Of a stretch of DNA of 64,000 nt, positions 1,153 through 35,700 are shown in pieces. Each line of letters begins with the position of its first letter. Position 1 is the first letter of the stretch. This DNA is from an uncultured Holophagales bacterium. Lineage in GTDB: Bacteria > Acidobacteriota > Thermoanaerobaculia > Multivoradales > UBA5704. A program made the translations under genes and the position numbers. The stretch is from positions 608,366 through 672,365 of the forward strand of contig CAWJQA010000006.1 in NCBI GenBank assembly GCA_963844885.1, given 5' to 3'. The notes under the pieces were generated by a model. That model saw only the letters and a list, made by a program, of their open reading frames with translations, was not told the origin of the DNA and did not search any database.

Positions 1153-3288
1153 CTAATGAGAGTGGGCACTGTGCGTCATCGTGGGCGTACCCGTATCCTC
1201 CCCCACCACCTCGACGATCTCCATCATTCCCAGGTCTTCGTGATCGAGGATGTGGCAGTGCATCACGAACTGCCCGATGTAATCGGTGTACTGCGTATAG
1301 ATGTTCAGCGTCTGGCCGGCGGGGATCAGCAACGTGTCCTTCCACACAACCTCGTTGTTCCCCTCCGGATCCGTGCGCGTGGTCTGGAACGGGTTCACGT
1401 GGATGTGGAACACGTGCGGCAGCGGCGGGATGCCGTTCGCGATCACCGAAGGGTCGCCGACCGTGGTGAGGCTCCACATGTCGGTGGCGCCGAGCTTCAC
1501 GTAGCGGATGCGCGTGGGGTTGAACGCCGAGTAGTTGATCTGGAAGTAGTTTCGCGGATCGTTCGCCGGGTTCGCGGAGCTGCCGAGCTTGAACACCGCG
1601 GTCTGCACGCCGTCGGCCTGCGCCTGGAGGTTGACGCCCGGGAACGGCGCGAGCTTCGCCATCTCGGCGTCCGTGGGAAGCTTCATGTCCACGGGATCGC
1701 CTTCCACATGGATTTCGGCGAGCAGGTTTTCATCCTCGACCACGCCGCGCAGGGCCTGAACGGCGGAGGTCGGCGCATCAATCAATCGGTAGACGCCCGG
1801 CGTCAGGCTCGCCTGCACGAGAACGTCGCTGCGGTAGCCCGGCTGGAGCTGCACCGTCTGCGCGGGACCCCAGGTATCGATGCGGCCGAGATAGAGGCCG
1901 TCGAGCGCGATCTCGTGGAGCGAGTGGCCTTCCAGGTGAAGGCTGAGCGATTCACGGAAGGAGGTGTCGATCATCCGCCAGCGCTGAACCTCGCCCGGAT
2001 GCATCTTGATGATCGGCACGATCTGGCCGTTGATCGTGACGCGCCGCAGGGAATTCTGCCAGGTGCAGCCGGACTTCCCTTCCTTGCAGAGCTTTTCGGT
2101 GGCGGGGCTGTCCGGAAAGAAAGCCGTGATGTCGTCGGCGCGGCCGTTGGCGTCGTAGAGGATAGTCTGGAAAACCATGACCTTTTCGTGCTCGTTGGCC
2201 TTGCGCAGCGACTCGGGGATCTCCTCGGGATCGTCTTCGATGATCAGCGCGCCGGACATGCCGCTGCCGACCTGGATCGCGGTCGAGCCGTGGGTGTGCG
2301 CGTGGTACCAGAAGGTGCCCGGCGGATGATTGGCCGGCACGTGGATCTCGTACGGGAAGCTCGTCTGCGGCGGGATCGCGAGCAGCACGTTGTCGCTGTT
2401 GCCCGTGGGTGAAACGTGGAGCCCGTGGGTGTGGAGATTCGTGGTGTTGAAGCTGTGCGGCATCGTGTCGATGAAGGCGTTGGTGGCCTCCTGCTTGACC
2501 TGAGATGCGGCCTCGTCCGGCGTCTCGAGGGGCAGCGCGTTTTGGAGCGTCGGCGCCAGGGTGTCGCCCGGCTTGATGCGCAGCGTCGGTCCCACGAGCT
2601 GGCCGTTGTAGGAGCGCAGTGTCACCGGACAGCCGCCGAGCGAGGTGGCCTTCGGATCGGTGTATTGGACCGCAAGGGTGGTTTCGAGCCGGCCCTCGTG
2701 AGAACGCTTGTCCGGCGGGTTTTGGAAATCCTGGCGCCCGTACTTGTCGATGTCGATCGCCGCGAACGGGCAGGGGCCTTTCGGAGGCGGTGGCTGCTGG
2801 GCGCGCAGACCGGTCGCGCCGGCGAGCGCCAGGGCGAGCAGAAGCGCGGTGGTCCGCCATCGATTGGATCGTGTCATGTGGTTCTCTCCTGAATGGTCAA
2901 CTCCGCATGAGTGGCCGGCGACGGGCCGCGCGGCCCACACCGCGGCGCCGAGGAGCGCCGCCATGCCGAGATAGATGAAAGGTTTCTGATGCAACCAGAA
3001 CCGGCCGGCAGCGATCGCCCCCGCGCCGAGGAGCGCCACCGCCGCCGGTCCGGCCATCAGCCGGCTGTGACGGCAGCGGCCCTGGAAAGCGATGGCGCCG
3101 ACCGTGAGCGCGAGCGACGCCACCGTCACCGGCGCCAGCCAGGCGCCATAGAGCCCGAAGGCGGACCAGGAGAGGCTCGCCGATCCCACCAGACCCGCAT
3201 AGGCGAGCAGGCAGGCGGGGCATTTGGGCGCCACCGCCAGGACGAGCGACGAAATGAGGAGCGCGCGGCTCCGGGCCTCTCCAGCCAT
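1153..3288 (-). CDS. multicopper oxidase (laccase-like, 3-domain); possible internal start at 2880 preceded by a 136-aa 4-TM extension
   Basis: Copper-ligand motifs HTHGLHV, WYHAHTHG and HCHILDHEDLGMM. The signal-like peptide MTRSNRWRTTALLLALALAGATGLRAQQ begins at 2880. The upstream in-frame 136 aa are strongly hydrophobic and carry a CPAC motif. It sits immediately upstream of the tyrosinase on the same strand. Confidence 0.85.
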   Translation of the reverse strand: MAGEARSRALLISSLVLAVAPKCPACLLAYAGLVGSASLSWSAFGLYGAWLAPVTVASLALTVGAIAFQGRCRHSRLMAGPAAVALLGAGAIAAGRFWLHQKPFIYLGMAALLGAAVWAARPVAGHSCGVDHSGENHMTRSNRWRTTALLLALALAGATGLRAQQPPPPKGPCPFAAIDIDKYGRQDFQNPPDKRSHEGRLETTLAVQYTDPKATSLGGCPVTLRSYNGQLVGPTLRIKPGDTLAPTLQNALPLETPDEAASQVKQEATNAFIDTMPHSFNTTNLHTHGLHVSPTGNSDNVLLAIPPQTSFPYEIHVPANHPPGTFWYHAHTHGSTAIQVGSGMSGALIIEDDPEEIPESLRKANEHEKVMVFQTILYDANGRADDITAFFPDSPATEKLCKEGKSGCTWQNSLRRVTINGQIVPIIKMHPGEVQRWRMIDTSFRESLSLHLEGHSLHEIALDGLYLGRIDTWGPAQTVQLQPGYRSDVLVQASLTPGVYRLIDAPTSAVQALRGVVEDENLLAEIHVEGDPVDMKLPTDAEMAKLAPFPGVNLQAQADGVQTAVFKLGSSANPANDPRNYFQINYSAFNPTRIRYVKLGATDMWSLTTVGDPSVIANGIPPLPHVFHIHVNPFQTTRTDPEGNNEVVWKDTLLIPAGQTLNIYTQYTDYIGQFVMHCHILDHEDLGMMEIVEVVGEDTGTPTMTHSAHSH

Positions 3289-3478
3289 TCTTCTCCTCCA
3301 TGACTACGGCTGCATGGCTCCGAAAGAGCAACCGCCGTGCCACGCGGGAACACCGCCGAAGCACGGGAGAAAGAACGGTTTTTCGAGAGAGGCGCGCCCG
3401 CGGCGGCGCGTCATCCGGTCATGTCGAACTGTGTCGCCTGATGTCGGGCCACGCCGGACTATGGTCCGGTTGTGTCGG

Positions 3479-3973
3479 TTACCCGGTCGCGAGCGTGGCC
3501 AGCAGGCCTGGGAGGTCGAGCGGCCGGGTATACATGGCGAGCTCGCCGTCATCCGTGCGCGGCCAGTCTTCCCGGGGGCGGTCCCAGTAGAGCTCGACGC
3601 CGTTGTCGTCCGGATCCCGCAGATACAGGGCTTCGCTGACGCCGTGATCGGCGGCGCCTTCGAGCTGGATGCCCGCGGTGGCGACGCGCCGCAGGGCGTC
3701 GGCCAGCGAGCGCCGGTCGGGGTAGCGGATCGCGAGATGATAAAGGCCGGTAGTGCCCGGACCGGGCGGCGGGCCGCCCTGGCTCTCCCAGGTGTTGAGG
3801 CCGATGTGGTGATGGTAGCCGCCGGCACTCAGAAACGCGGCGGATCTGCCCATCCGCTGGGTCAACTCGAAGCCGAGGACGTCCCGGTAGAAACGGAGAG
3901 CGCGCTCGATGTCCGCCACCTTGAGGTGGACGTGGCCGATGTCGACGCCGGGAGAGATCCCCGTAGTCCCCAC
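3479..3973 (-). CDS. VOC/glyoxalase-bleomycin resistance-dioxygenase superfamily protein
   Basis: 164-aa ORF with VOC-fold motifs (HVHLKVADIERALRFYRDVLGFEL ... ELYWDRP). Confidence 0.75.
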   Translation of the reverse strand: MGTTGISPGVDIGHVHLKVADIERALRFYRDVLGFELTQRMGRSAAFLSAGGYHHHIGLNTWESQGGPPPGPGTTGLYHLAIRYPDRRSLADALRRVATAGIQLEGAADHGVSEALYLRDPDDNGVELYWDRPREDWPRTDDGELAMYTRPLDLPGLLATLATG

Positions 3974-3980
3974 CGCCGCC

Positions 3981-4211
3981 TCACCACGATTCCCGGGCCG
4001 AGACGGGAGGGTTCTCCGGGTGCTCTTCCGACTCGATGGACCGCAGCAGCAGCGCCGGGCTCTCCTTCACCTCCAGCACGGCGCCCGAGCCGAACCGGAT
4101 CTCGCTCCCTTCTTGCGGCTGGTGCGGGACCCGGTTGAGAATCGCCGCGATCTGCGAGGTCTGAAGGTTCACGTTCCTGTCGTCGAGCATCGTCGCCGTG
4201 ATCCATGCCAT
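3981..4211 (-). CDS. hypothetical small protein
   Basis: 76-aa ORF between the VOC and M20 genes with no recognisable motif. Confidence 0.25.
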   Translation of the reverse strand: MAWITATMLDDRNVNLQTSQIAAILNRVPHQPQEGSEIRFGSGAVLEVKESPALLLRSIESEEHPENPPVSARESW

Positions 4212-4269
4212 GCTTCGAGAGTATCACGGGATCGCTTCAGGGGCTCCCGGCATTATAGGATGACGGTCC

Positions 4270-5754
4270 ATGAAGAAGATCCTCCTCACCGTCCTCGGCC
4301 TCGCCGTCCTCCTCCTGGCCGTGCTGGTCGGCCGCGCCTCGATGCTCGACTCCCGGCAGGTGAAGGCTGAGCCGGTGACCGACCTCAGTGTCGATGCCAA
4401 CGCGGTGGCTCAGCGGCTCGCCGGCGCCGTCCGCTTCCCCACCGTCTCCCATGAAAAGGGGGAAAACGTGGAGGCGCAGGCGTTCCTCGGGCTGCACGAG
4501 TACCTGCGGACGAGCTTCCCGCTGGTCCATCAGACCCTCCAGCGCGAGACGGTCGCGAACTACAGCCTTCTCTATACCTGGCCGGGGCGCAATCCGGAAC
4601 AGCCGCCGATCCTTCTCCTGTCCCACATGGACGTGGTGCCCGTCGAGCCCGGCACGGAAGGCAAATGGTCGCACCAGGCCTTCTCCGGCGACATCGCGGA
4701 CGGCTTCATCTGGGGCCGCGGCACCCTCGACGACAAGGTTTCGGTGATGGCGGTGCTCGAAAGCATCGAGCTGCTGCTTGCGCGCGGCTTCCAGCCGGAG
4801 CGGACGGTACTGCTCGCCTTCGGGCACGACGAGGAGGTCGGAGGCAATCAGGGTGCGGCGGCCATCGCGCGCCTGCTCGAAAGCCGCGGCGTGCATCCCG
4901 AGCTGATCATGGACGAAGGCGGCATCATCGCCGACGGCATGGTGCCCGGCATAAAGACGCCCGTGGCCCTGATCAGCACCGCCGAGAAAGGTTTCGTCAC
5001 GGTCGAGCTGACGGCGCGCTCCAAGGGTGGCCACTCGTCCATGCCGCCGGCCCACACCACCATCGGGATGGTGGCCGCCGCCGTGCAGAAACTCGAAGAG
5101 AACCAGATGCCGGCCCGCATCGACGGCGCGACGCGCCACTCTTTCGAATTCCTCGCGCCGGAGCTGCCACTCACCTTGCGCACCGTGATGGGCAACCTCT
5201 GGTTTTTCGGACCGCTTCTGAAAAGCAAGCTCACCGTGGAGCCGGCCTCCAACGCGCGCCTGCGCACCACCACGGCGGCGACGATCATCCGCGGAGGAGT
5301 CAAGGAAAACGTGCTGCCGAGCGAAGCGACGGCTTGGGTGAACTTCCGCATCCTGCCCGGAGACTCGGTCGCGTCGGTGCTGGAGCATGTGAAGGAGACG
5401 GTCGGCCCGGACATCGAAATGTCCGTTTCGGGTCCGATCCGGAACGAACCCTCGCCCGAAACCCCCGCGGACGGCGCCGGCTTCCGACTCCTCCAGACGA
5501 CGCTCTCCCAGGTCTTCCCCGGCATGCTCGCCGCGCCCAATCTCCTTTCCGGCGGGACGGACACGAAGCACTACCAGAAGCTGACGAGCAATGTTTTCCG
5601 CTTCATCCCGGTGAAAATCCAGGCCGAGGATCTGGAGCGCGTCCACGGCACCAACGAAAGGGTCGGAGTCGAAACCTACGCCGGAGCCGTGCGTTTCTAC
5701 GCCCAGTTCGTGAGGAACGCCGCGGGCGGGCCGGAAGGCGGGGGAAAGTTGTGA
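4270..5754 (+). CDS. M20 family metallopeptidase (carboxypeptidase/dipeptidase-like), secreted
   Basis: N-terminal signal/TM segment. M20 motifs LLSHMDVVPV, GRGTLDDK and FGHDEEVGG. 494-aa ORF. Confidence 0.9.
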   Translation: MKKILLTVLGLAVLLLAVLVGRASMLDSRQVKAEPVTDLSVDANAVAQRLAGAVRFPTVSHEKGENVEAQAFLGLHEYLRTSFPLVHQTLQRETVANYSLLYTWPGRNPEQPPILLLSHMDVVPVEPGTEGKWSHQAFSGDIADGFIWGRGTLDDKVSVMAVLESIELLLARGFQPERTVLLAFGHDEEVGGNQGAAAIARLLESRGVHPELIMDEGGIIADGMVPGIKTPVALISTAEKGFVTVELTARSKGGHSSMPPAHTTIGMVAAAVQKLEENQMPARIDGATRHSFEFLAPELPLTLRTVMGNLWFFGPLLKSKLTVEPASNARLRTTTAATIIRGGVKENVLPSEATAWVNFRILPGDSVASVLEHVKETVGPDIEMSVSGPIRNEPSPETPADGAGFRLLQTTLSQVFPGMLAAPNLLSGGTDTKHYQKLTSNVFRFIPVKIQAEDLERVHGTNERVGVETYAGAVRFYAQFVRNAAGGPEGGGKL

Positions 5755-6614
5755 ACGGCACGGAATTGGGGATGCCGCTCGCCTTCGATCCCGAGCGCGC
5801 CGACTTCACCGGAATCGCGAACCCACCCGATCCAGTCGGGGTCCACGTAGGACTCCGTCCCAACCACACCCAGAGGGATCGTGTTGACGTCGAAGTCGGA
5901 GCCGAGGGGCTTGCCCGCTGGCGAGAACCGCCGTGCCCGCAAAACCGCAGTCGGGGTGGGACCCGGCACTTCTCCGAGCCAGACGGCCAGGAAACCGCCA
6001 TCGGCGACAGCCAGGACGATCGGTTTTGAGCGGTCGATGGGCCGGCTGTTCAAACGCACCTCTGGCCCGATCCGCTGACCCGAGGACGAAAGGCGCCGGG
6101 CCACGATGCCATGCTTGCGGGGCAGCGCCCAGCCGGCCATGAACCCGTTGCCCCGGACAAGCCAGACCCATTCGGTGCCGGCCCCGCCCAGTCGAACCGG
6201 CTGGCCGTCAGGCGCGCCCTGCAGAGTCAGGTGCTGCCGATAGAAGGCCGTCGGCTTTCCACTGGGCGGCTCGTGCCAGAGCACGTCGAAACCCTTCAGC
6301 GCGGCCGTGACGGAGTCGATCGACGGATAGTGGTCCTCAAATCCGATCGTGGCCGGCCCTGCATCCTCGGGCGTGTCTCCGGCGGCGACGTAGCGATAAA
6401 AGACTCCTGCATGAGAATCGTACCCCTCGCCCCACGCGACCATGTAGGCACCGCCGGGCTGCACGGCCAGGAAGGGTTCCCTGGGGAACGTGGCGGCGCG
6501 CAGATCGACCTCCGGACCCAGCGGCACCAGTTGAGCTACAAGGCCGCGAGGGCCTGCGATGCCGATCCACGCTACGCTGACGAAAAAGCAGAGGGCGAGC
6601 CGTGTCCTGTTCAT
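5697..6614 (-). CDS. hypothetical secreted protein
   Basis: 305-aa ORF with an N-terminal signal peptide (MNRTRLALCFFVSVAWIGIAG). Its 3' end is convergent with the M20 gene and overlaps it. Confidence 0.5.
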   Translation of the reverse strand: MNRTRLALCFFVSVAWIGIAGPRGLVAQLVPLGPEVDLRAATFPREPFLAVQPGGAYMVAWGEGYDSHAGVFYRYVAAGDTPEDAGPATIGFEDHYPSIDSVTAALKGFDVLWHEPPSGKPTAFYRQHLTLQGAPDGQPVRLGGAGTEWVWLVRGNGFMAGWALPRKHGIVARRLSSSGQRIGPEVRLNSRPIDRSKPIVLAVADGGFLAVWLGEVPGPTPTAVLRARRFSPAGKPLGSDFDVNTIPLGVVGTESYVDPDWIGWVRDSGEVGALGIEGERHPQFRAVHNFPPPSGPPAAFLTNWA

Positions 6615-7085
6615 GAAGTAATTATACGCCCGGCGAAGGGGTCATCTGCTAGGCTTGGGCTCCGACATCGCTCCGGAGGCCGTCCACGAGTTGGGCCTGA
6701 GCGAGGTGGCGCGGATCACCGCGGAGATGACCAGACTGGCGCAGGCGCAGGGCTACAAGAACCTCGCCGCCTTTCGCGCCGCGATCAACAGCGAAGTTCC
6801 CAGACGGGCTTTCCTCCCAGCCTGCCTCGTGAGGGTAGGGTTCGCCCCAGCCGGCTAGGTCGCGCCGCGCTCAGTGGCAATCAACCTCTTCCAACATCTA
6901 CGGATTTCAGGAGGCGTTGCCCGGAGACGAGGTTCCCACGGAAGGTTGTGTTTCCTGCAGCTCGCGCGGCCTCCGGATTGCGCTGAAGGCTCCTGAATCC
7001 ACAGATTCGCCCCTTTCAGAAGTCTTCCCGCTCTACCAACCTCCCCTCCGCAGCTCAACTCTCCAGACGCTGACATAGTGCTGTG

Positions 7086-7565
7086 TCATTTTCTGGGCTT
7101 GCCAGCAGGTCGGAGCGCGGCCTTAACAAAAGTGCTAAGTACTCCTCCGAACCCTTTCAAATCAGCCCTTTCATTAGCTGGCATTACGACCAAAGCGAGA
7201 AGGTAGGCTCCTAGTAAGGCGGCAGCGATTACGAAAGGAAGAACCCACGCCGTGACGTTAGAAGACGCAACCGCCAGAGCTGTGAGCGTTACGACTAAGC
7301 CGACGAGGATCATCGCGGCTCTAGCGATCCCGTGCCAGAAGACATTAGGCGGCGGGAGTAGCGCCGCCCTTCGGCCGGCTGGGCTACTAGGGCCGTCTGG
7401 GCTAGCTGCCGATACCGAGTAACCCCGATCGTCGATAGCGACATCGGCGCTCGCCTCTTGATGCAAGTCACCCTGACGCACGTGAAGATTCGAGTCACCC
7501 GTCGTTGTTAGTTTGAGTTGAATGTGCGATTTGTCATAGCCGCTACCGAGGTCGACCTTCGTCAC
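7086..7565 (-). CDS. hypothetical membrane protein (lower-GC island)
   Basis: 159-aa ORF with two C-terminal TM helices. Codon usage is visibly AT-richer than in its neighbours. Confidence 0.45.
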   Translation of the reverse strand: MTKVDLGSGYDKSHIQLKLTTTGDSNLHVRQGDLHQEASADVAIDDRGYSVSAASPDGPSSPAGRRAALLPPPNVFWHGIARAAMILVGLVVTLTALAVASSNVTAWVLPFVIAAALLGAYLLALVVMPANERADLKGFGGVLSTFVKAALRPAGKPRK

Positions 7566-7584
7566 TTGCTCTCCTCCTTAGTCC

Positions 7585-8535
7585 TCAAGGAATTGCAAAA
7601 GGGTGAGCTTCGACTGGGTGTTCGATGTGCTCATGTTTGAACTCTTCGTTCGGGTATTCCAGTTTTTCTCGCACGCGAATGTAATCCGGGTCGTATCGAT
7701 GCTCGTAGCGCCTTGTGTCGTTGACATATTTGACGAGGGCCCTTTCGTACGCGGCTATTTGGCTTGCATGGACTCGGACGTCGAGGTCGATGATATTGGT
7801 CGTTGACCGACTTTCGTGAAACCGAGATGGTGCATGGATGGCCTGCACTTGGCCGACTATGTAGATCTCGCGAATCGGAAGGGGAGGGCGGAAGGCAGCC
7901 TCCACCATCTGGGAAGTCGCGGGAGGCAGCGACTGATCACTATTTAGGACTTCGAATCCTGGGGGTGGACGCGGGAGGCCACCCTTCCCGGCCTGCTTCA
8001 AGAGTGCTTGGCGGAGATCGCCGTCCGCGAACAGAAGAACACTGGCCCATTGGTCCTGCTGCTCAAGGGCGGCCACAGTGACTGTGACCGCACCCACTAG
8101 GACGGTGGGCCTGACACCGTCGACTACTGCGCCTCTGGCTGCCGCCTCGCTTTTTTCCTTCGGAATCTTTTCCGCATCAGAAACGGTGATGATTCGGATG
8201 AGCTCATCTTTGATTGTCAGGACTGTGTGGGCGTCCGGAGTTGTACCATCATGGACCTGGAACTCAGCGTAGTACGGCTGAGGTCGGGTCGGGAGGGTCG
8301 GGGGAATCAGGTCTGAAGAGAGATCCGTGGACGTGCTGCTGGTCGTGGTCTCGAAGCCATGGAAAAATCCGTACAAGGCCAACGACCCAAGGAACAGTAG
8401 TGGGGCCCCCAGAGCCACCAGAGGTAGGATGCACCCGAGCACCCAATCAGTAAGGCTCCAATCCTTCTGTGACGGCTTTGTCGTGAACTGGGTCTCGCCG
8501 CGTTGCGGACCACGGGGATGGCGATCCTGGGCCAT
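7585..8535 (-). CDS. hypothetical membrane-anchored protein (lower-GC island)
   Basis: 316 aa with an N-terminal TM helix, an S/T-rich linker and a C-terminal globular region. It is tightly linked to 7086..7565. Confidence 0.5.
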   Translation of the reverse strand: MAQDRHPRGPQRGETQFTTKPSQKDWSLTDWVLGCILPLVALGAPLLFLGSLALYGFFHGFETTTSSTSTDLSSDLIPPTLPTRPQPYYAEFQVHDGTTPDAHTVLTIKDELIRIITVSDAEKIPKEKSEAAARGAVVDGVRPTVLVGAVTVTVAALEQQDQWASVLLFADGDLRQALLKQAGKGGLPRPPPGFEVLNSDQSLPPATSQMVEAAFRPPLPIREIYIVGQVQAIHAPSRFHESRSTTNIIDLDVRVHASQIAAYERALVKYVNDTRRYEHRYDPDYIRVREKLEYPNEEFKHEHIEHPVEAHPFAIP

Positions 8536-8881
8536 AGGAGCCTCCGAATGAGCTGGGGCGGATTATACTACTTAGACGTGCGTGTCTGCGTTTTTCCCCT
8601 GCGGGTGCTAACGTCGGAGGGTGCGCCTCGGGGCCCCGAGGTGTGCGCTTTGTGCCCGAAGGAGGCGCCCTGGTGGAGGTCACGGTCAGGACGAGGCAGT
8701 CTCGCCTCCTCCTGCGACCCGGGCACTGCCTTGAACGAGATCGTGATCGGACCTACGCTGGTAGACGAAATCGAAGCCGACGCCAGAGCGGGATCATTTC
8801 CGCCTGGCCTGCCGTTCGTCCGAGCCTGGCACCTTCTGAGTGGAAGATCACGCAGGTGATCAGCTTCGACTACGTGTCCCA

Positions 8882-9430
8882 CTAGGCCGGCGCCGGGCTG
8901 CGTTGCTCCTGGCGAGGACGCGGCCCCTTCGCATAGAGCGCCTCGTAATACGAGCGCCCCTCGCGGACGAGATGGATGCGCTGATCCCGTTGCAGGCGGC
9001 GGAGAGCGGACGAGACGTTGCGCACGTCGGCGGCCTTGCCCAACCGGGCCCGGAAGCGCCGGTTGATCTCCGCAGTGATGGCCGTGGGACCGAACGGCTC
9101 GCCGTCCGGCCGGCTCGCCAGGATCCGGGCGATCAGATCGCCGACCCTGGAGTTGGGACCGATGTCCGGGTCGTCCACCACGGTGGAAGAGGCAGGAGCC
9201 GCGGGCACCGTCTCGGGCGCGGCAGGCTTGACCAGCTCCGCGGCGGGGACGGCTACCGTCTTGAGCGCTTCGAGATGCTGCGCCGTCGTCTCCAACTCAG
9301 CCGCGAGGATGGTGCGCTGCTCGCGATGATGCTCCTCCTCCCGGACATGGCTGGCGACCTGCTCGCGGAGGAAGGCGACCCGCCGCTCCAGGTTGTCGAG
9401 AATCTCGGCCAGCGAAAGCTTCAAGCTCAC
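8882..9430 (-). CDS. hypothetical coiled-coil protein with C-terminal winged-helix-like segment (ORF track 8882..9562; probable GTG start near 9430)
   Basis: The coiled-coil-like region reads LAEILDNLERRVAFLREQV...LEALK. The C-terminal segment reads ARLGKAADVRNVSSALRRLQRDQRIHLVREGRSYYEALY. The first 45 aa of the long ORF are translation of the tandem repeat array and are probably not coding. Confidence 0.4.
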   Translation of the reverse strand: MSLKLSLAEILDNLERRVAFLREQVASHVREEEHHREQRTILAAELETTAQHLEALKTVAVPAAELVKPAAPETVPAAPASSTVVDDPDIGPNSRVGDLIARILASRPDGEPFGPTAITAEINRRFRARLGKAADVRNVSSALRRLQRDQRIHLVREGRSYYEALYAKGPRPRQEQRSPAPA

Positions 9431-9486
9431 GACACGACTCTCCTTTCGCGACGCAGACTTGCCACGCCCAGCGCATTGGAAGTCCA

Positions 9487-9915
9487 ATCTGCGATGTCGC
9501 CAGTCCAACCCGCGGCATTGTATGGACACTTCGCAGCGCTGTACACAGACTCTGCGACGCATTGCAGAGTCTCCGCACTGCCGCGAAGATACTCTGCGGC
9601 GCTGCCAGCAGGCTCTGCGGCGTTATACAGAGAATATGCCGTGTTGTCAAGATGACCTGAGACGCCGCACGCCGCCATCGCGACGCCGTACAGGATCTTT
9701 GCGGCGTTGAGTGGGTACTCTGCAATGCTTTATCCGTAATCTGCAACGTCGCTCACAGTCTCCGCGACGCCGAAAGGAGACTCTGCGGCGCCGGATGGAG
9801 GCTCCGCGATGCCGGATGGAAACTCCGCGGCGTTGCATGGAGAGTCTGCAGCGCTGCACGGATACTCTGCGGCATTGAATACGTACATTGCGCCGCCGGA
9901 GCGGTACTCTGCGGC
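9487..9915. repeat. tandem array of ~20 degenerate 21-bp direct repeats (consensus approx. ACTCTGCGGCGNTGNNNNGNG)
   Basis: Units can be read directly at about 9487, 9508, 9529, 9541, 9561, 9582, 9604, 9685, 9707, 9729, 9750, 9771, 9793, 9814, 9835, 9855, 9877 and 9897. The array lies between the divergent genes 8882..9430(-) and 9987..11246(+). All six frames show 7-aa pseudo-repeats with stops. Confidence 0.75.
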
Positions 9916-9986
9916 GTCGTCTCAAGGGTTGTCCGCAGATCCAGGCTGCTATACTGATTTCGGGACCACACGAACACCATGCAGCC

Positions 9987-11246
9987 ATGCACTTGGTGAA
10001 CGACAAGACAGATCTCCCGGTCGTCGTCGCCGGAGCCGGCGCTGCGGGCACGGTGGCGGCCCTCTTCGCAGCCGGCGGCATTCGCCGGGTGCTGCTCCTC
10101 GAACGGACGCGCGACGGCGGACGCAAGATCCTGGTGAGCGGCGGCGGGCGGTGCAACGTCCTGCCTTCCTCTCTCGAGCCCGCCCGGTTCGTCACCGACT
10201 CCTCTCCGAACACTCTGAAGAAAATCCTTCTGTCCTGGCCGCTCGCGGAGCAGCGACGGTTTTTCGAGGAGGAGGTGGGCATCCCGCTGGCGCTGGAGGA
10301 GGAGACCGGCAAGCTCTTCCCCGCCTCGAACCGGGCGCGGGACGTGCGCGACGGCCTGCTCCGCCTGGCCGCCCGGCGAGGTGTGGAGACGGTGTTCGAC
10401 GCGCTGGTGGAGGACGTTTTTCCATCGGAAGGCTCGTGGGCCGTCCGGCTTCAAGGAGCCCGGGTGATCCGCGCCTCCGCGGTGATCCTGGCGACCGGCG
10501 GCCTCTCGCTGCCGGGCACCGGGAGCGACGGCACCGGCTTCCTGATCGCGCGCCGGCTCGGGCATACCGTCCACGCTACCTATCCCGCCCTGACACCCCT
10601 GACCGCCGACCCGCCCCGCCACGCCGGCCTGGCCGGAATCTCGCTGGAGGTGAATCTGGAGGCGCCGCTGCGCAAGGGCCGGTTCGAGACCCATGGCGGC
10701 TTCCTCTTCACTCACCATGGATACAGCGGGCCGGCCGTGCTGGACGCTTCCCACCTCGCCGTCCGCTCCCGGATGGCCGGCGGCCCTCCACAACCTCTCT
10801 ATATAAGATGGACCGCCGGAAACCCCGAGGAGTGGGACCGCCGGCTCCGCGAAGGCACGGGAACCGTGGCCACGCCGCTGCGCCGAGCTCTGCCCGGCCG
10901 CCTCGCCGAGATGCTGTTGGCGGAGGCCGGAGTCGATCCCGCGCGCCCGCTCCCCCAGCTCCGCCGCGAGGAGCGCCGCAAGCTGGTCGAGCTCCTCACC
11001 CGCTATCCCCTCCCCTGGACCGGCGACGAAGGCTATCCGAAGGCCGAGGTCACCGGCGGCGGCGTCGCGCTCTCCGAAATCGACCCCCGCACGCTGGAAA
11101 GCCGCCTCCATCCCGGCCTCTTCCTCTGCGGCGAGATGCTCGACGCCTTCGGCCCCATCGGCGGCCACAACTTCGCCTGGGCCTGGGCCACGGGACGGGC
11201 GGCCGGGAGGGGCGCCGCCTGGGAAGACCCCAGGGGGAGAGCTTGA
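9987..11246 (+). CDS. HI0933/BaiN-like NAD(P)/FAD-dependent flavoprotein (aminoacetone oxidase family)
   Basis: Start MHLVNDKTDLPVVVAGAGAAGTVAALFAA (GxGxxG) at 9987. The GGGRCNV motif is present. This is the 452-aa ORF 9888.. trimmed to the in-frame ATG. Confidence 0.85.
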   Translation: MHLVNDKTDLPVVVAGAGAAGTVAALFAAGGIRRVLLLERTRDGGRKILVSGGGRCNVLPSSLEPARFVTDSSPNTLKKILLSWPLAEQRRFFEEEVGIPLALEEETGKLFPASNRARDVRDGLLRLAARRGVETVFDALVEDVFPSEGSWAVRLQGARVIRASAVILATGGLSLPGTGSDGTGFLIARRLGHTVHATYPALTPLTADPPRHAGLAGISLEVNLEAPLRKGRFETHGGFLFTHHGYSGPAVLDASHLAVRSRMAGGPPQPLYIRWTAGNPEEWDRRLREGTGTVATPLRRALPGRLAEMLLAEAGVDPARPLPQLRREERRKLVELLTRYPLPWTGDEGYPKAEVTGGGVALSEIDPRTLESRLHPGLFLCGEMLDAFGPIGGHNFAWAWATGRAAGRGAAWEDPRGRA

Positions 11247-11262: not shown

Positions 11263-12939
11263 CTACGACCGCGTGTCGACGAACTCAAACACTGGCAACA
11301 CCTTCAACCCATACGCCTCGAGAGCCAGTCCGTCGATTTTCCCGAAGTCGCGGTTCTCGAACGCCGTAGCCAATCCCTTCGCAACCTTAGGCGCGATGCT
11401 TGCCGGCAGGGGCAGCCGGATCCGCCGCAAGTACTGCGCTTGGAAGCGCAGGTAGCCGCCCCGCATTTTAACGGCGTACGACCAAACAAAGAACAACGCG
11501 ACCTTCGAGCTGAGGAGCGCGCCGAGCACGCGCATGTCCCACGAGCCGGAAGTCACAAAGTAGAGGTTATGATGCGGCTGAAAACGCCCTTCGTCGAGAA
11601 CGACCTCGTTCGAGCCTGCGATGTCAGGGATAAGGAGCTTGGGAACTCCGACAAGATCCGGCCGTACCCGGTCGATTGTGCGGAACCAGGCTCGCTCATT
11701 GTGTTGGGCGACGTGGCGAGCCCGGACAGAGCCAGCATGGATCTCAAGGTAGCGCGCCAGGCGTGGGTAGTCCCTCAGATCGACGACTCCGCCGCCATCG
11801 CGAAAAGTATTGATAACAAACCTGTTGCCATTGTGGATTCGGCCTGCTTTGATGTCATCGCGCATGACAAGGGGTACGAGGCGATCTGCCTCGATGTCGG
11901 CGTCCGGCCCAACGATGTAAATTTTATCATTACCCGTTGCGACTCCGATGCGAACCTTGGTGTCTCCCGTCTCGAGCGGCGTGTGACGATCCTCAAGCTG
12001 CCGCAGGACGGCCAGTTGCTCCGGTGTGCTGAAAACCCATGGCTCGTCGCCCCGAAACCAAGTCTCGTAACGGGTTGCCACGACGCCAGCCGCGTTCTTG
12101 CCCGCCCCATTCATTGCAGGTATGACGGCGCTGCATTCTTCCGCCGATGCCGAATCGAGAGTCGCGACACTGACTCTATCGATTTTGCCACGGCCGATCG
12201 CAAAGATCGCCGGGTAGGCAATAACCTCGGACTCGAAAGGCGAAGCATGATGAAGGTCGATGTAGCAACGGACCCGAAAGCGCTCGGTGATGATCCGGCG
12301 AAGCGGAGCGCCATATTTGTTGAGTGTCCATCGATCCGCACAGACAAACGACAAAACGCCTTCCTCCCCCAAAAGATTTAACCCGTGTTCGATGAAGGCG
12401 ACGTAGAGATCGGCGCGATCGTAGATGGACGAGAATCGTCTTCGATACTCCTGCTGCAGAACAGATGCAACCTGCTCGATGCGCACGTAGGGAGGGTTCC
12501 CCACGATGGCGTCGAACCTCTCGCCTCCGCTCGTCAGAAGGAAGTCCTCTTGACGAATCCAGCCGCTCGCGAGGTTCTCAGCAATGGACTCCTTGGCTCC
12601 ACTCTCGACGAGTTGCTCGATCACCGCTCGTCTGGAAATGGCAATGTGCTCGGCGTCTATGTCGTACGCCGTGATCGAGGTGCCCAGGCTGGCCATCGGT
12701 CGGCGATGCCGCTTCGCCGAGGCCGAGAGGCGTTTCACTGCTGGAAGAAGAAATGCCCCATGCCCGCAGGCTGGCTCCAGAAGACGCAGCTTTGTCAGAT
12801 CTCGATCGGTCGTGTAGCCTGCCAGGTCCAGGATGAGCTCGACGACATGTGGCTTGGTGAGGACGACTCCATGCGTCCCGCCCGACGTGCGCTCACCATA
12901 CTCATACACATTGCCGGGGAGCGCCACCGGAAAATCCAT
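11263..12939 (-). CDS. N6-adenine DNA methyltransferase, Eco57I/M.TaqI-like gamma class with C-terminal target-recognition region
   Basis: Motif I LEPACGHGAFL and motif IV IVGNPPYV. 558 aa. The gene body is lower in GC than its flanks. Confidence 0.85.
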   Translation of the reverse strand: MDFPVALPGNVYEYGERTSGGTHGVVLTKPHVVELILDLAGYTTDRDLTKLRLLEPACGHGAFLLPAVKRLSASAKRHRRPMASLGTSITAYDIDAEHIAISRRAVIEQLVESGAKESIAENLASGWIRQEDFLLTSGGERFDAIVGNPPYVRIEQVASVLQQEYRRRFSSIYDRADLYVAFIEHGLNLLGEEGVLSFVCADRWTLNKYGAPLRRIITERFRVRCYIDLHHASPFESEVIAYPAIFAIGRGKIDRVSVATLDSASAEECSAVIPAMNGAGKNAAGVVATRYETWFRGDEPWVFSTPEQLAVLRQLEDRHTPLETGDTKVRIGVATGNDKIYIVGPDADIEADRLVPLVMRDDIKAGRIHNGNRFVINTFRDGGGVVDLRDYPRLARYLEIHAGSVRARHVAQHNERAWFRTIDRVRPDLVGVPKLLIPDIAGSNEVVLDEGRFQPHHNLYFVTSGSWDMRVLGALLSSKVALFFVWSYAVKMRGGYLRFQAQYLRRIRLPLPASIAPKVAKGLATAFENRDFGKIDGLALEAYGLKVLPVFEFVDTRS

Positions 12940-35109: not shown

Positions 35110-35700
35110 GCCGCCTCCGACGCGTAAACCAGGCTGCCGAATGCCTTCGGCGAGGCGCCGGACGCGTAAACCCGGCCGGTTTATCCATCCGGCGGCGTGC
35201 CCGACGCCTAAACCAGGCTGCCGAACGCCTTCGGCGAGACGCCGGACGCGTAAACCAGCCGGTTTACCCATCCGGCGGCGTACCCGACGCGTAAACCAGA
35301 CTGCCGGATGCCTTCGGCGAGCCGCTGGACGCGTAACCCGGCCGGTTTATCCATCCGGCGGCGTGCCCGACGCGTAAACCAGGCTGCCGAATGCCTTCGG
35401 CGAGCCGCCGGACGCGTAACCCGGCCGGTTTATCCATCCGGCGGCGTGCCCGACGCGTAAACCAGGCTGCCGAATGCCTTCGGCGAGCCGCTGGACGCGT
35501 AACCCGGCCGGTTTATCCATCCGGCGGCGTGCCCGACGCGTAAACCAGGCTGCCGAATGCCTTCGGCGAGACGCCGGACGCGTATCCCGGCCGGTTTATC
35601 CATCCGGCGGCGTGCCCGACGCGTAAACCAGACTGCCGAATGCCTTCGGTGAGCCGCCGGACGCATCAATCCTGGCGGTTTATCACGCTCCCGGCGGCGG
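35110..35700. repeat. tandem array of about 6.5 copies of an 87-bp unit (each unit made of two related ~43-bp half-units with short palindromes)
   Basis: Unit GACGCGTAAACCAGGCTGCCGAATGCCTTCGGCGAGCCGCCGGACGCGTAACCCGGCCGGTTTATCCATCCGGCGGCGTGCCC recurs with few substitutions starting about 35119, 35205, 35291, 35378, 35466, 35553 and 35615. Internal stems GGCCGG...CCGGCC. Confidence 0.85.

Follow-up and report, generated by a model that had tools for sequence, protein, structure and literature searches.

A phased 21-bp repeat array and the coiled-coil winged-helix gene beside it in Acidobacteriota: a probable multi-site binding platform for the gene product

The window analysed here, a 64,000-nucleotide (nt) stretch of DNA from an uncultured Holophagales bacterium, contains a tandem repeat array situated between two divergent genes. 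One of them, on the minus strand, encodes a 182-residue protein with a predicted coiled coil and winged helix, and the other, on the plus strand, encodes a flavoprotein, as described in the original prediction, which was made from the sequence without database searches. The features of this locus, numbered from the first position of the window, are as follows.

9482..9922, unstranded: array of 21 x 21 bp, with the core ACTCTGCGGCG on the plus strand, which is CGCCGCAGAGT in the sense of the gene
9446..9458, unstranded: extra promoter-proximal copy of the core, tcgcgacgcagac, beyond the coordinates of the original prediction, inverted with respect to the main array and abutting the ribosome-binding site
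9439..9446, minus strand: Shine-Dalgarno (SD) sequence AAGGAGAG, read from the sequence, 8 nt before the GTG start
8882..9430, minus strand: gene for the 182-residue protein, GTG start
9622..9650, minus strand: promoter-like site TTGACA-17-TATAAC, 11 of 12 matches, within the two most degenerate units (a consensus match only)
9517..9545, minus strand: second, weaker promoter-like site, TGTACA-17-TACAAT (likewise only a consensus match)
9947..9955, plus strand: extended -10-like sequence TGCTATACT, 25 bp beyond the last unit
9987..11246, plus strand: HI0933-like flavoprotein gene

The array consists of 21 contiguous units, each of exactly 21 bp, that keep a single register with zero indels and can be written as rows of 21. 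The consensus, GGAgACTCTGCGGCGCcGtAt, has an information content of about 16 bits; unit positions G10 and C11 never vary, T7, C8, G15 and G18 hardly do, and there is almost no constraint at positions 4, 19 and 21. Each unit is made up of a degenerate core of 9–10 bp and 11–12 bp of drifting sequence. Most of the units share one orientation, with a few inverted copies embedded in the register, and units 8 and 9 (9629..9670) are the most degenerate. The GC content is 59–61% in the array and 59–65% when the flanks are included. A dyad-symmetric unit (TGCRRY/RYYGCA) was first supposed; the correlation of the matrix with its own reverse complement was only 0.41, which makes this symmetry a weak feature.

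About 20 tandem degenerate repeats had been claimed, and the periodicity was borne out against both the rest of the window and shuffled sequence. Self-identity at lag 21 was 0.56 for the array, compared with a mean of 0.309 (standard deviation 0.039) for 441-bp stretches of the whole window; every one of the top-ranked lag-21 stretches overlapped the array locus, and in 2000 shuffles of the array region the maximum over lags 9–69 never exceeded 0.36. Tandem Repeats Finder recovered only the best-preserved part (9760..9873, 5.4 copies, 74% matches), and a repeat search detected 13 copies at spacings of 21, 42, 63 or 84. When the 64-kb window was scanned at a threshold of at least 12 bits with a 14-bp core matrix, which was derived from the array units themselves and so inflates the scores of the array, 16 of the 18 forward-strand matches fell within the array and one reverse-strand match lay elsewhere. 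From this distribution, there is no second cluster of the motif in the window. Clustered regularly interspaced short palindromic repeats (CRISPR) had been correctly dismissed, since the 21-mers are contiguous and without unique spacers; no cas genes were found nearby in the window annotation.

The gene at 8882..9430 has a GC content at third codon positions (GC3) of 0.86, typical of the host. An AlphaFold2 model of its product, for which 31 homologues were used (mean predicted local distance difference test score, pLDDT, of 78), showed a single long helix with a heptad pattern at residues 7–66 (pLDDT about 96), a disordered Pro/Ala linker at 68–91 and a canonical winged helix-turn-helix (HTH) at 96–168, in the order H-b-H-H-b-b, with the recognition helix RNVSSALRRLQRD at 136–148. 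This predicted structure agrees with the coiled coil and the winged-helix-like C-terminus that had been proposed from the translation. Foldseek searches against PDB and BFVD returned only generic winged-helix DNA binders (Fur, PadR, BlaI, Z-alpha, RTP and 2ns0, with E values of at least 3.6e-3) and indicated no specific family. Since the cores are not tracts of alternating purines and pyrimidines, the resemblance to Z-alpha was discounted. No match to the protein was obtained in Pfam, NCBIfam or PADLOC, a profile search against PDB sequences gave nothing useful, and a match to a peptidyl-prolyl isomerase (E = 2) was spurious. When 31 members of the family were compared with Pfam at E <= 1, no Rep, KfrA, KfrA_N, ParR, MerR or DUF536 appeared among the 25 families most often matched, of 32 in all. 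DUF3253 (PF11625) was weakly matched by three of the 31 members (best E 7.7e-5), the window protein itself having no match, and the DUF3253 structure 2ns0 was among the weak fold matches (rank 47, E = 0.068). Our literature search found no description of this protein family or of DUF3253. Neither a predicted membrane-binding helix nor a known adaptor motif was found in the 182-residue protein.

In the long helix, residues 21–42 place polar residues at heptad core positions. Two of them, H28 and H35, reach at least 90% conservation in a set of 109 representatives, and E32 and R39 do not vary among the 31 closer homologues; the family consensus of this stretch is HRExEAxHAxQEAxHREQR. The polar layer that H28, H35, E32 and R39 would form inside the coiled coil looks like a metal- or ligand-binding layer, or a pH-sensitive one.

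A profile search of 1.84 billion representative proteins retrieved 426 clusters at E <= 1e-3 and 289 at E <= 1e-10, so the family comprises at least 426 clusters at 50% identity. The listed cluster members are almost all 160–180 residues long and are matched over their full length. All of the genome matches (14 of 14) belong to Acidobacteriota, from Thermoanaerobaculia and Holophagales, and a tblastn search of the family against PLSDB, phage records and IMG/VR gave zero relatives. Some database homologues (P0007, P0009, P0010, P0015 and other members of 200–277 residues) carry false N-terminal extensions with a 7-residue period, for example LSQIGLV LSQIGLV or VTQSDLL VPQSELD, in which the open reading frame (ORF) was called upstream through the array; to judge from their sequence, these extensions are translated 21-bp arrays. 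In practical terms, array stretches of this kind yield false N-terminal extensions and false ORFs from gene callers.

Fifty homologous loci (designated by L numbers) were retrieved, of which 45 had enough upstream sequence for array analysis. In all but about four of these, the best self-similarity lag upstream of the gene was 20–21, 40–42 or 59–63, which together account for about 20% of all lags tested; self-similarity upstream of the gene was usually above any value elsewhere in the same locus. Conservation of the motif in related genomes had been named as a check on a regulatory array, and we observed that an array is kept beside the gene, adjoining it upstream, in about 40 of the 45 loci, down to about 30% protein identity; the distant members L049 and L050 also have arrays. 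The pair of gene and array was thus seen in many Acidobacteriota of soil. The motif finder placed 10–30 sites in each array, over a span of 300–850 bp and with spacings of 19–22 bp or multiples of these. Across the loci, the array periods were 19.67, 20, 20.67 or 21 bp, the Fourier estimate of the period being noisy for short or mixed arrays. Individual arrays were read as follows.

L047, 7645..8000: 17 units of TCGCAGAG in perfect 21-bp register
L016: 16 units of GTCGCAGAG
L001, 5635..5991: 16 units of GTCGTCGCGACT
L040: 16 units of GCGCAACG, with a period of 20 bp
L009, 5520..5880: 17 units of ATAAGCTTATCCACCGCGAC, with a period of 19.67 bp

The suggestion that all copies face the same side of the helix is exact for the 21.0-bp array of the window and does not extend to relatives with periods of 19.7–20.7 bp, in which the face rotates slowly. 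The alternative of a decayed heptad-repeat gene was not sustained: the homologous loci hold no intact repeat ORF, their arrays are non-coding, and most of the periods cannot encode heptads, so that periods which are not multiples of three exclude this origin. The comparative evidence, namely non-coding arrays that are conserved with the gene, supports the interpretation of the repeats as a putative regulatory binding array. In L009, the unit also holds TTATCCAC, an 8/9 match to the DnaA box consensus that occurs in about 17 tandem copies, and a perfect palindrome, ATAAGCTTAT; both were noticed post hoc and are perhaps coincidence. The DNA of L015 is 99.8% identical to that of the window over 1665 bp, which makes this locus uninformative on the evolution of the array.

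Conservation within the arrays was concentrated in the cores. The orthologous arrays of L002 and L003, whose proteins are 95% identical, keep their register and differ in 4.0% of the columns of the core GCCGCGAC and in 13.2% of the spacer columns (Fisher p = 2.6e-5); the third codon positions of the gene differ by 5.6%. The pairs L005/L026 and L012/L025 showed weaker core-over-spacer conservation in the same direction (p = 0.06 and 0.16). A conserved orientation of the sites relative to the gene was first supposed; however, the two-strand site finder gave mixed and opposed blocks, with sites on both strands and the 20–21 bp phase kept throughout. In many arrays, the distal block has a single orientation and the proximal part is mixed or opposed, as in the L004 group ('+--++++----'). 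The presence of sites on both strands with a kept phase fits the recognition of duplex DNA and argues against a strand-specific RNA.

All cores have in common CGC followed by purines, and the flanking bases vary with the protein clade and the recognition helix. The helix R(S/N)VS(A/S)ALRR pairs with the core G(T/C)CGC(A/G).., PPAVS.(V/I)LRR with G(C/A)CGCGAC, ARQISVVLRR with TGCCGCAAA, and RTASDVLRR with CACCGC(A/G)A. These clade-linked cores agree with a possible co-evolution of the protein and its site.

A scan with the plain sigma-70 consensus gave good promoters in few loci, and it was the extended -10 pattern that proved informative. Of 33 loci, 24 carry the motif TGNTANNNT in gene sense, mostly 19–133 nt before the start codon, and matches of this type within 600 nt numbered 27 in sense and 1 in antisense. 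TGNTANNNT is directly followed by a core in at least ten loci, a core abutting the SD occurs in several motif classes, and an SD-adjacent core equivalent to that at 9446..9458 is present in many homologous loci. In the window, the putative promoter at 9622..9650 would give a 5' untranslated region (UTR) of about 185 nt containing 6–7 units. At the second site, the -10 hexamer (TACAAT, 9517..9522) runs directly into a core (TACAAT-GCCGCGG), the same layout as TGNTANNNT plus core in the homologous loci. A promoter-like site is also found in the middle of the L016 array, and a similar one can be read in that of L047. The sole antisense match, TGCTATACT, is probably the promoter of the flavoprotein gene, and was counted as context only because this neighbour is not conserved with the module, that is, the gene together with its array.

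The module is chromosomal: it occurs on contigs of up to 8.4 Mb, and the window contains ordinary metabolic and housekeeping genes. On two closed or near-closed contigs, CAVUHL010000003.1 (8.38 Mb) and CAWAUI010000004.1 (5.89 Mb), it lies at 1.47 Mb and 4.03 Mb, respectively. We first concluded that the flanking genes are never conserved, but an all-against-all comparison revealed partial synteny among related genomes, with an M20 peptidase gene near the module in the window, L016 and L047, and some further groups of loci had flanks in common. Over the entire family the neighbours vary, and the constant unit is the gene with its array. The flavoprotein gene of the window is not a conserved partner, and no nucleoside triphosphatase (NTPase) or other partner gene was conserved beside the module in the loci examined. 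Some genomes have two modules, such as the metagenome-assembled genome (MAG) JBEQUE01, which contains L001 and L047. Rfam and tRNA scans returned nothing at the array locus.

From these sequence comparisons, we consider it probable that the 8882..9430 protein has in this array its cognate, helically phased platform of multiple binding sites, with autoregulation of the gene. The array, its phasing, its conservation with the gene and the selective conservation of its core were observed directly, and the fold of the protein is that of the model; the association of the two points to this protein as the presumed binder of the array, and how it oligomerises, whether it activates or represses and what it may do besides autoregulation are likewise inferred. 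In the proposed mechanism, the protein would dimerise or form higher oligomers through its 60-residue N-terminal helix, and its winged helices, carried on 25-residue tethers, would occupy successive 9–10 bp cores two helical turns apart, building a cooperative nucleoprotein filament over about 450 bp. This filament would cover the embedded promoter and the leader, and would thus control the expression of its own gene. Given a promoter within the array, a core after the -10 and a core abutting the ribosome-binding site, such a filament should feed back on the transcription of the gene, and the positions of the sites suggest repression. At 10.5 bp per turn, periods of 19.67–21 bp correspond to offsets of 0 to about -46 degrees per unit, which suggests a filament able to wrap DNA, as do ParR, omega and TubR, described as DNA-wrapping filaments (PMC5016525).

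Several points weigh against this interpretation. Autoregulation normally needs one or two operators, which leaves the 10–30 kept sites unexplained; because their number is far above that need, it is likely that the nucleoprotein body has a further role, which could be that of a centromere-like, pairing, anchoring, barrier or titration device. The promoters rest on consensus matches only, the core in the core-versus-spacer test was set by consensus matching, with some bias toward conserved columns, and the agreement between clades and cores is confounded by shared ancestry. In addition, the paralogous modules of JBEQUE01 (L001 and L047) have the same helix, RSVSAALRRM, and different cores (GTCGTCGCGACT and TCGCAGAG), so the recognition helix alone does not explain the specificity, and cross-binding is possible.

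The excess of sites leads to an alternative that extends the binding-platform reading without being exclusive of it. Here the complex of array and protein would itself be the product, a chromosomal centromere-like or anchoring landmark serving as a single-protein device for positioning, pairing or tethering, or as a partner site for an unlinked ParA-type ATPase, and autoregulation would be a by-product, as in plasmid parC/ParR, tubC/TubR and pSK1 par. It would account for 10–30 sites over 300–850 bp, far beyond what autoregulation needs, and for the confinement of the motif to one cluster in the 64-kb window; repeats on both sides of the binder-gene promoter match R1 parC and tubC (PMC5016525), and a coiled coil with a winged helix is the design of Par(pSK1), RacA and RocS (PMC11500499) and of KfrA (PMC7783346). 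Nevertheless, no NTPase or partner gene is conserved beside the module, neither a membrane-binding helix nor a known adaptor motif is predicted in the protein, the absence of the family from the plasmid, phage and IMG/VR collections leaves it with no mobile-replicon context, and some genomes contain two modules. We regard this alternative as possible, although unlikely. An equally tentative proposal, which we hold to be doubtful, is that of a hitherto undescribed single-gene landmark or sensor system in the chromosome of Acidobacteriota, in which the protein polymerises on its own 300–850 bp array into a discrete nucleoprotein body. Such a body would serve as a switch, or as an element of the centromere-like, pairing or fork-barrier type; a ligand or metal at the nearly invariant His ladder (H28 and H35, with E32/R39 in close relatives) could gate its assembly, and the paralogous modules of one genome would be independent addresses.

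The remaining explanations assign the array to something other than the small protein. That another factor, such as a global regulator or a nucleoid-associated protein, binds the array and controls the small gene, the array not being the target of its product, would fit the paralogues with identical recognition helices and different cores. However, array and gene remain paired in differing neighbourhoods at identities as low as about 30%, the core varies from one protein clade to another, and the lack of further motif clusters in the window is unexpected for a global factor, so that we find this quite improbable. We give even less credit to the possibility that the repeats act as RNA, in a long structured 5' UTR or as a repeat-derived small RNA. 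For either strand, folding is more favourable than in shuffled controls (z = -3.7 and -5.1), the stronger promoter-like site of the window would place 6–7 units in the 5' UTR, and there are the mid-array sites of L016 and L047; but the favourable folding on both strands is explained by the inverted unit copies, sites lie on both strands with block orientations opposite between lineages, and the conserved -10, being mostly 19–133 nt from the start codon, leaves most of the array upstream of the promoter. Moreover, there is no Rfam match, and conservation is limited to the 9–10 bp core and shows no compensatory pattern. A spacing of about 21–22 bp and a place upstream of an autoregulated winged-helix Rep are typical of plasmid iterons, and the spacing and layout of the window array resemble them, its 21-bp period being also a multiple of three. 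On these grounds the array could be an iteron origin of plasmid or phage type, relic or integrated, together with its initiator; it could also be a decayed heptad-repeat gene or a neutral satellite. Against an iteron origin, no Rep, KfrA or ParR was among the Pfam matches listed for 31 members (the 25 most often matched of 32 families), the protein has about 170 residues with a single winged helix, no AT-rich unwinding element is present (the array has 59–61% GC), GC3 is host-like, the chromosomal loci are partly syntenic, and there were no plasmid, phage or viral matches. A coding origin is excluded by the periods of 19.67, 20 and 20.67 bp together with the stops present in every frame, and a neutral satellite by family-wide conservation and by the better conservation of the core than of the spacers. 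These three readings are already largely refuted, and we think it very improbable that any of them is correct.

The binding-platform interpretation ties the array to an unannotated family of at least 426 clusters, in groups for which there is almost no genetics. Should the protein bind the array, the two would make a compact, tractable protein/DNA pair from an understudied phylum, and the family would offer a natural specificity series (cores CGCAGAG, CGCGAC, CGCAAA and CACCGCAA; periods of 19.7–21 bp) for studies of cooperative filaments; a new chromosomal organising or sensing element might also be revealed.

Other observations concern the surroundings of the module. Over 10527..8863, the window is matched at 99.8% by the L015 contig, which derives from a different sample, and the match resumes from 5854 downwards. 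The interval is occupied in L015 by an unlike 3.2-kb segment (1662..4825) that has a 925-residue gene, where the window has at 5855..8862 a 3.0-kb segment of low GC3 with three ORFs without a family match. The break lies 20 nt past the stop codon of the module gene, and at the two junctions there is an imperfect inverted repeat, GGGACACGTAGTC / GGGTCCACGTAGGACT. Between the module and the M20 peptidase gene, L016 and L047 contain different genes again. At about 10163..10166, a 4-bp difference from L015 lies inside the flavoprotein gene; the window copy is intact and has full-length HI0933 matches, and the L015 copy is split into two short called genes, which is a frameshift or assembly error in L015. 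Beyond the flavoprotein gene, 11263..12939 (minus strand) encodes a type II N6-adenine DNA methyltransferase, Eco57I/TaqI-like (PADLOC MTase_II, E = 1e-191), with a GC3 below that of its neighbours; no restriction partner was identified, and the gene is not conserved beside the module elsewhere. Farther away, at 35117..35684, a non-coding 83-bp tandem repeat (6.8 copies, 92% matches) precedes a GH25 lysozyme gene. Within each unit there are two GC-rich palindromes that resemble hairpins (GCCGAATGCCTTCGGC and CCGGCCGG...CCGGCGG), together with a repeated GACGCGTAA(A)CC.

Among known systems, theta-plasmid iterons (P1 incC/incA, F, R6K, RK2) are repeats of 17–22 bp about two helical turns apart that precede and autoregulate the gene of their winged-helix binder, and extra arrays titrate the protein. 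The initiators of the Rep_3/RepA type have two winged-helix domains in about 250–350 residues. The repeats of the window are likewise spaced about two helical turns apart before a winged-helix gene. In contrast, the module has no two-domain Rep initiator, unwinding element or replicon context, its copies are far more numerous, and DnaA boxes are not found in it as a rule. Its protein, of 182 residues, has one predicted winged helix and no NCBIfam match, and neither an AT-rich unwinding element nor an autonomous replicon was found at the array and its flanks.

Plasmid centromeres were compared as well. In pSK41 parC, 20-bp repeats are wrapped into a superhelix, and the pSK1 par gene is preceded by direct repeats. 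In R1 parC and in tubC, the promoter is surrounded or preceded by repeats, and the protein that binds them doubles as a repressor; ParR both builds the partition complex and represses transcription (PMC5016525). The module loci resemble type II partition (ParMRC) in their tandem direct repeats upstream of the operon of the presumed binder, continuous or split around the promoter (PMC5016525), and this layout of repeats and putative promoters could be read at them from the sequence. However, ParR is a ribbon-helix-helix protein and the window protein a predicted winged helix, arrays of the window family have 10–30 sites compared with 4–10 in parC, the context is chromosomal with no plasmid homologues, and no Pfam match to an actin-like ATPase (ParM) was found among the neighbours in the window or the loci examined. 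Type III partition (TubZRC, of pBtoxis and pBsph) is similar in that a small winged-helix gene is preceded by blocks of direct repeats, on which TubR forms a filament that represses its own operon (PMC5016525); TubR, however, has no long coiled-coil helix and no sequence or specific fold match to the module protein, and no TubZ-like gene was found downstream in the window or the loci examined.

Proteins that combine a coiled coil with a DNA-binding domain were also compared. In Par (pSK1), RacA and RocS, a winged HTH is combined with a coiled coil and a disordered region; these proteins bind centromere-like repeats and do not require a dedicated NTPase gene beside their own (PMC11500499). Their winged HTH is N-terminal and of the MerR type, followed by a C-terminal DUF536 or amphipathic helix, whereas that of the module protein is C-terminal and generic (closest to Fur/PadR/DUF3253, its best fold matches being Fur, PadR, BlaI and Z-alpha and not MerR), with no membrane helix predicted; the RacA sites are dispersed and those of the module form a tandem array. 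KfrA of RA3 is a coiled-coil autoregulator whose operator consists of five 9-bp direct repeats overlapping its own promoter, and its repression depends on how many repeats are present and how they are oriented, and on oligomerisation, with an accessory role in segregation (PMC7783346). As in the KfrA/TlpA arrangement, direct-repeat cores of the module flank and follow the predicted promoter elements and abut the SD. In KfrA (RA3, IncP-1), however, the HTH is N-terminal and followed by a tail of about 300 residues, the reverse of the order in the module protein; the window array has 21 or more sites at 21 bp, whereas the KfrA operator has 5, spaced about 11 bp, and the chromosomal module has neither KfrC nor ParAB as nearby partners. 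By analogy, the module would function like parC/ParR, tubC/TubR or the KfrA operator, being a member of none of those families. Phased arrays before the gene of their own binder are a hallmark of plasmid centromeres and iteron control regions, and here such an array is a stable feature of the chromosome.

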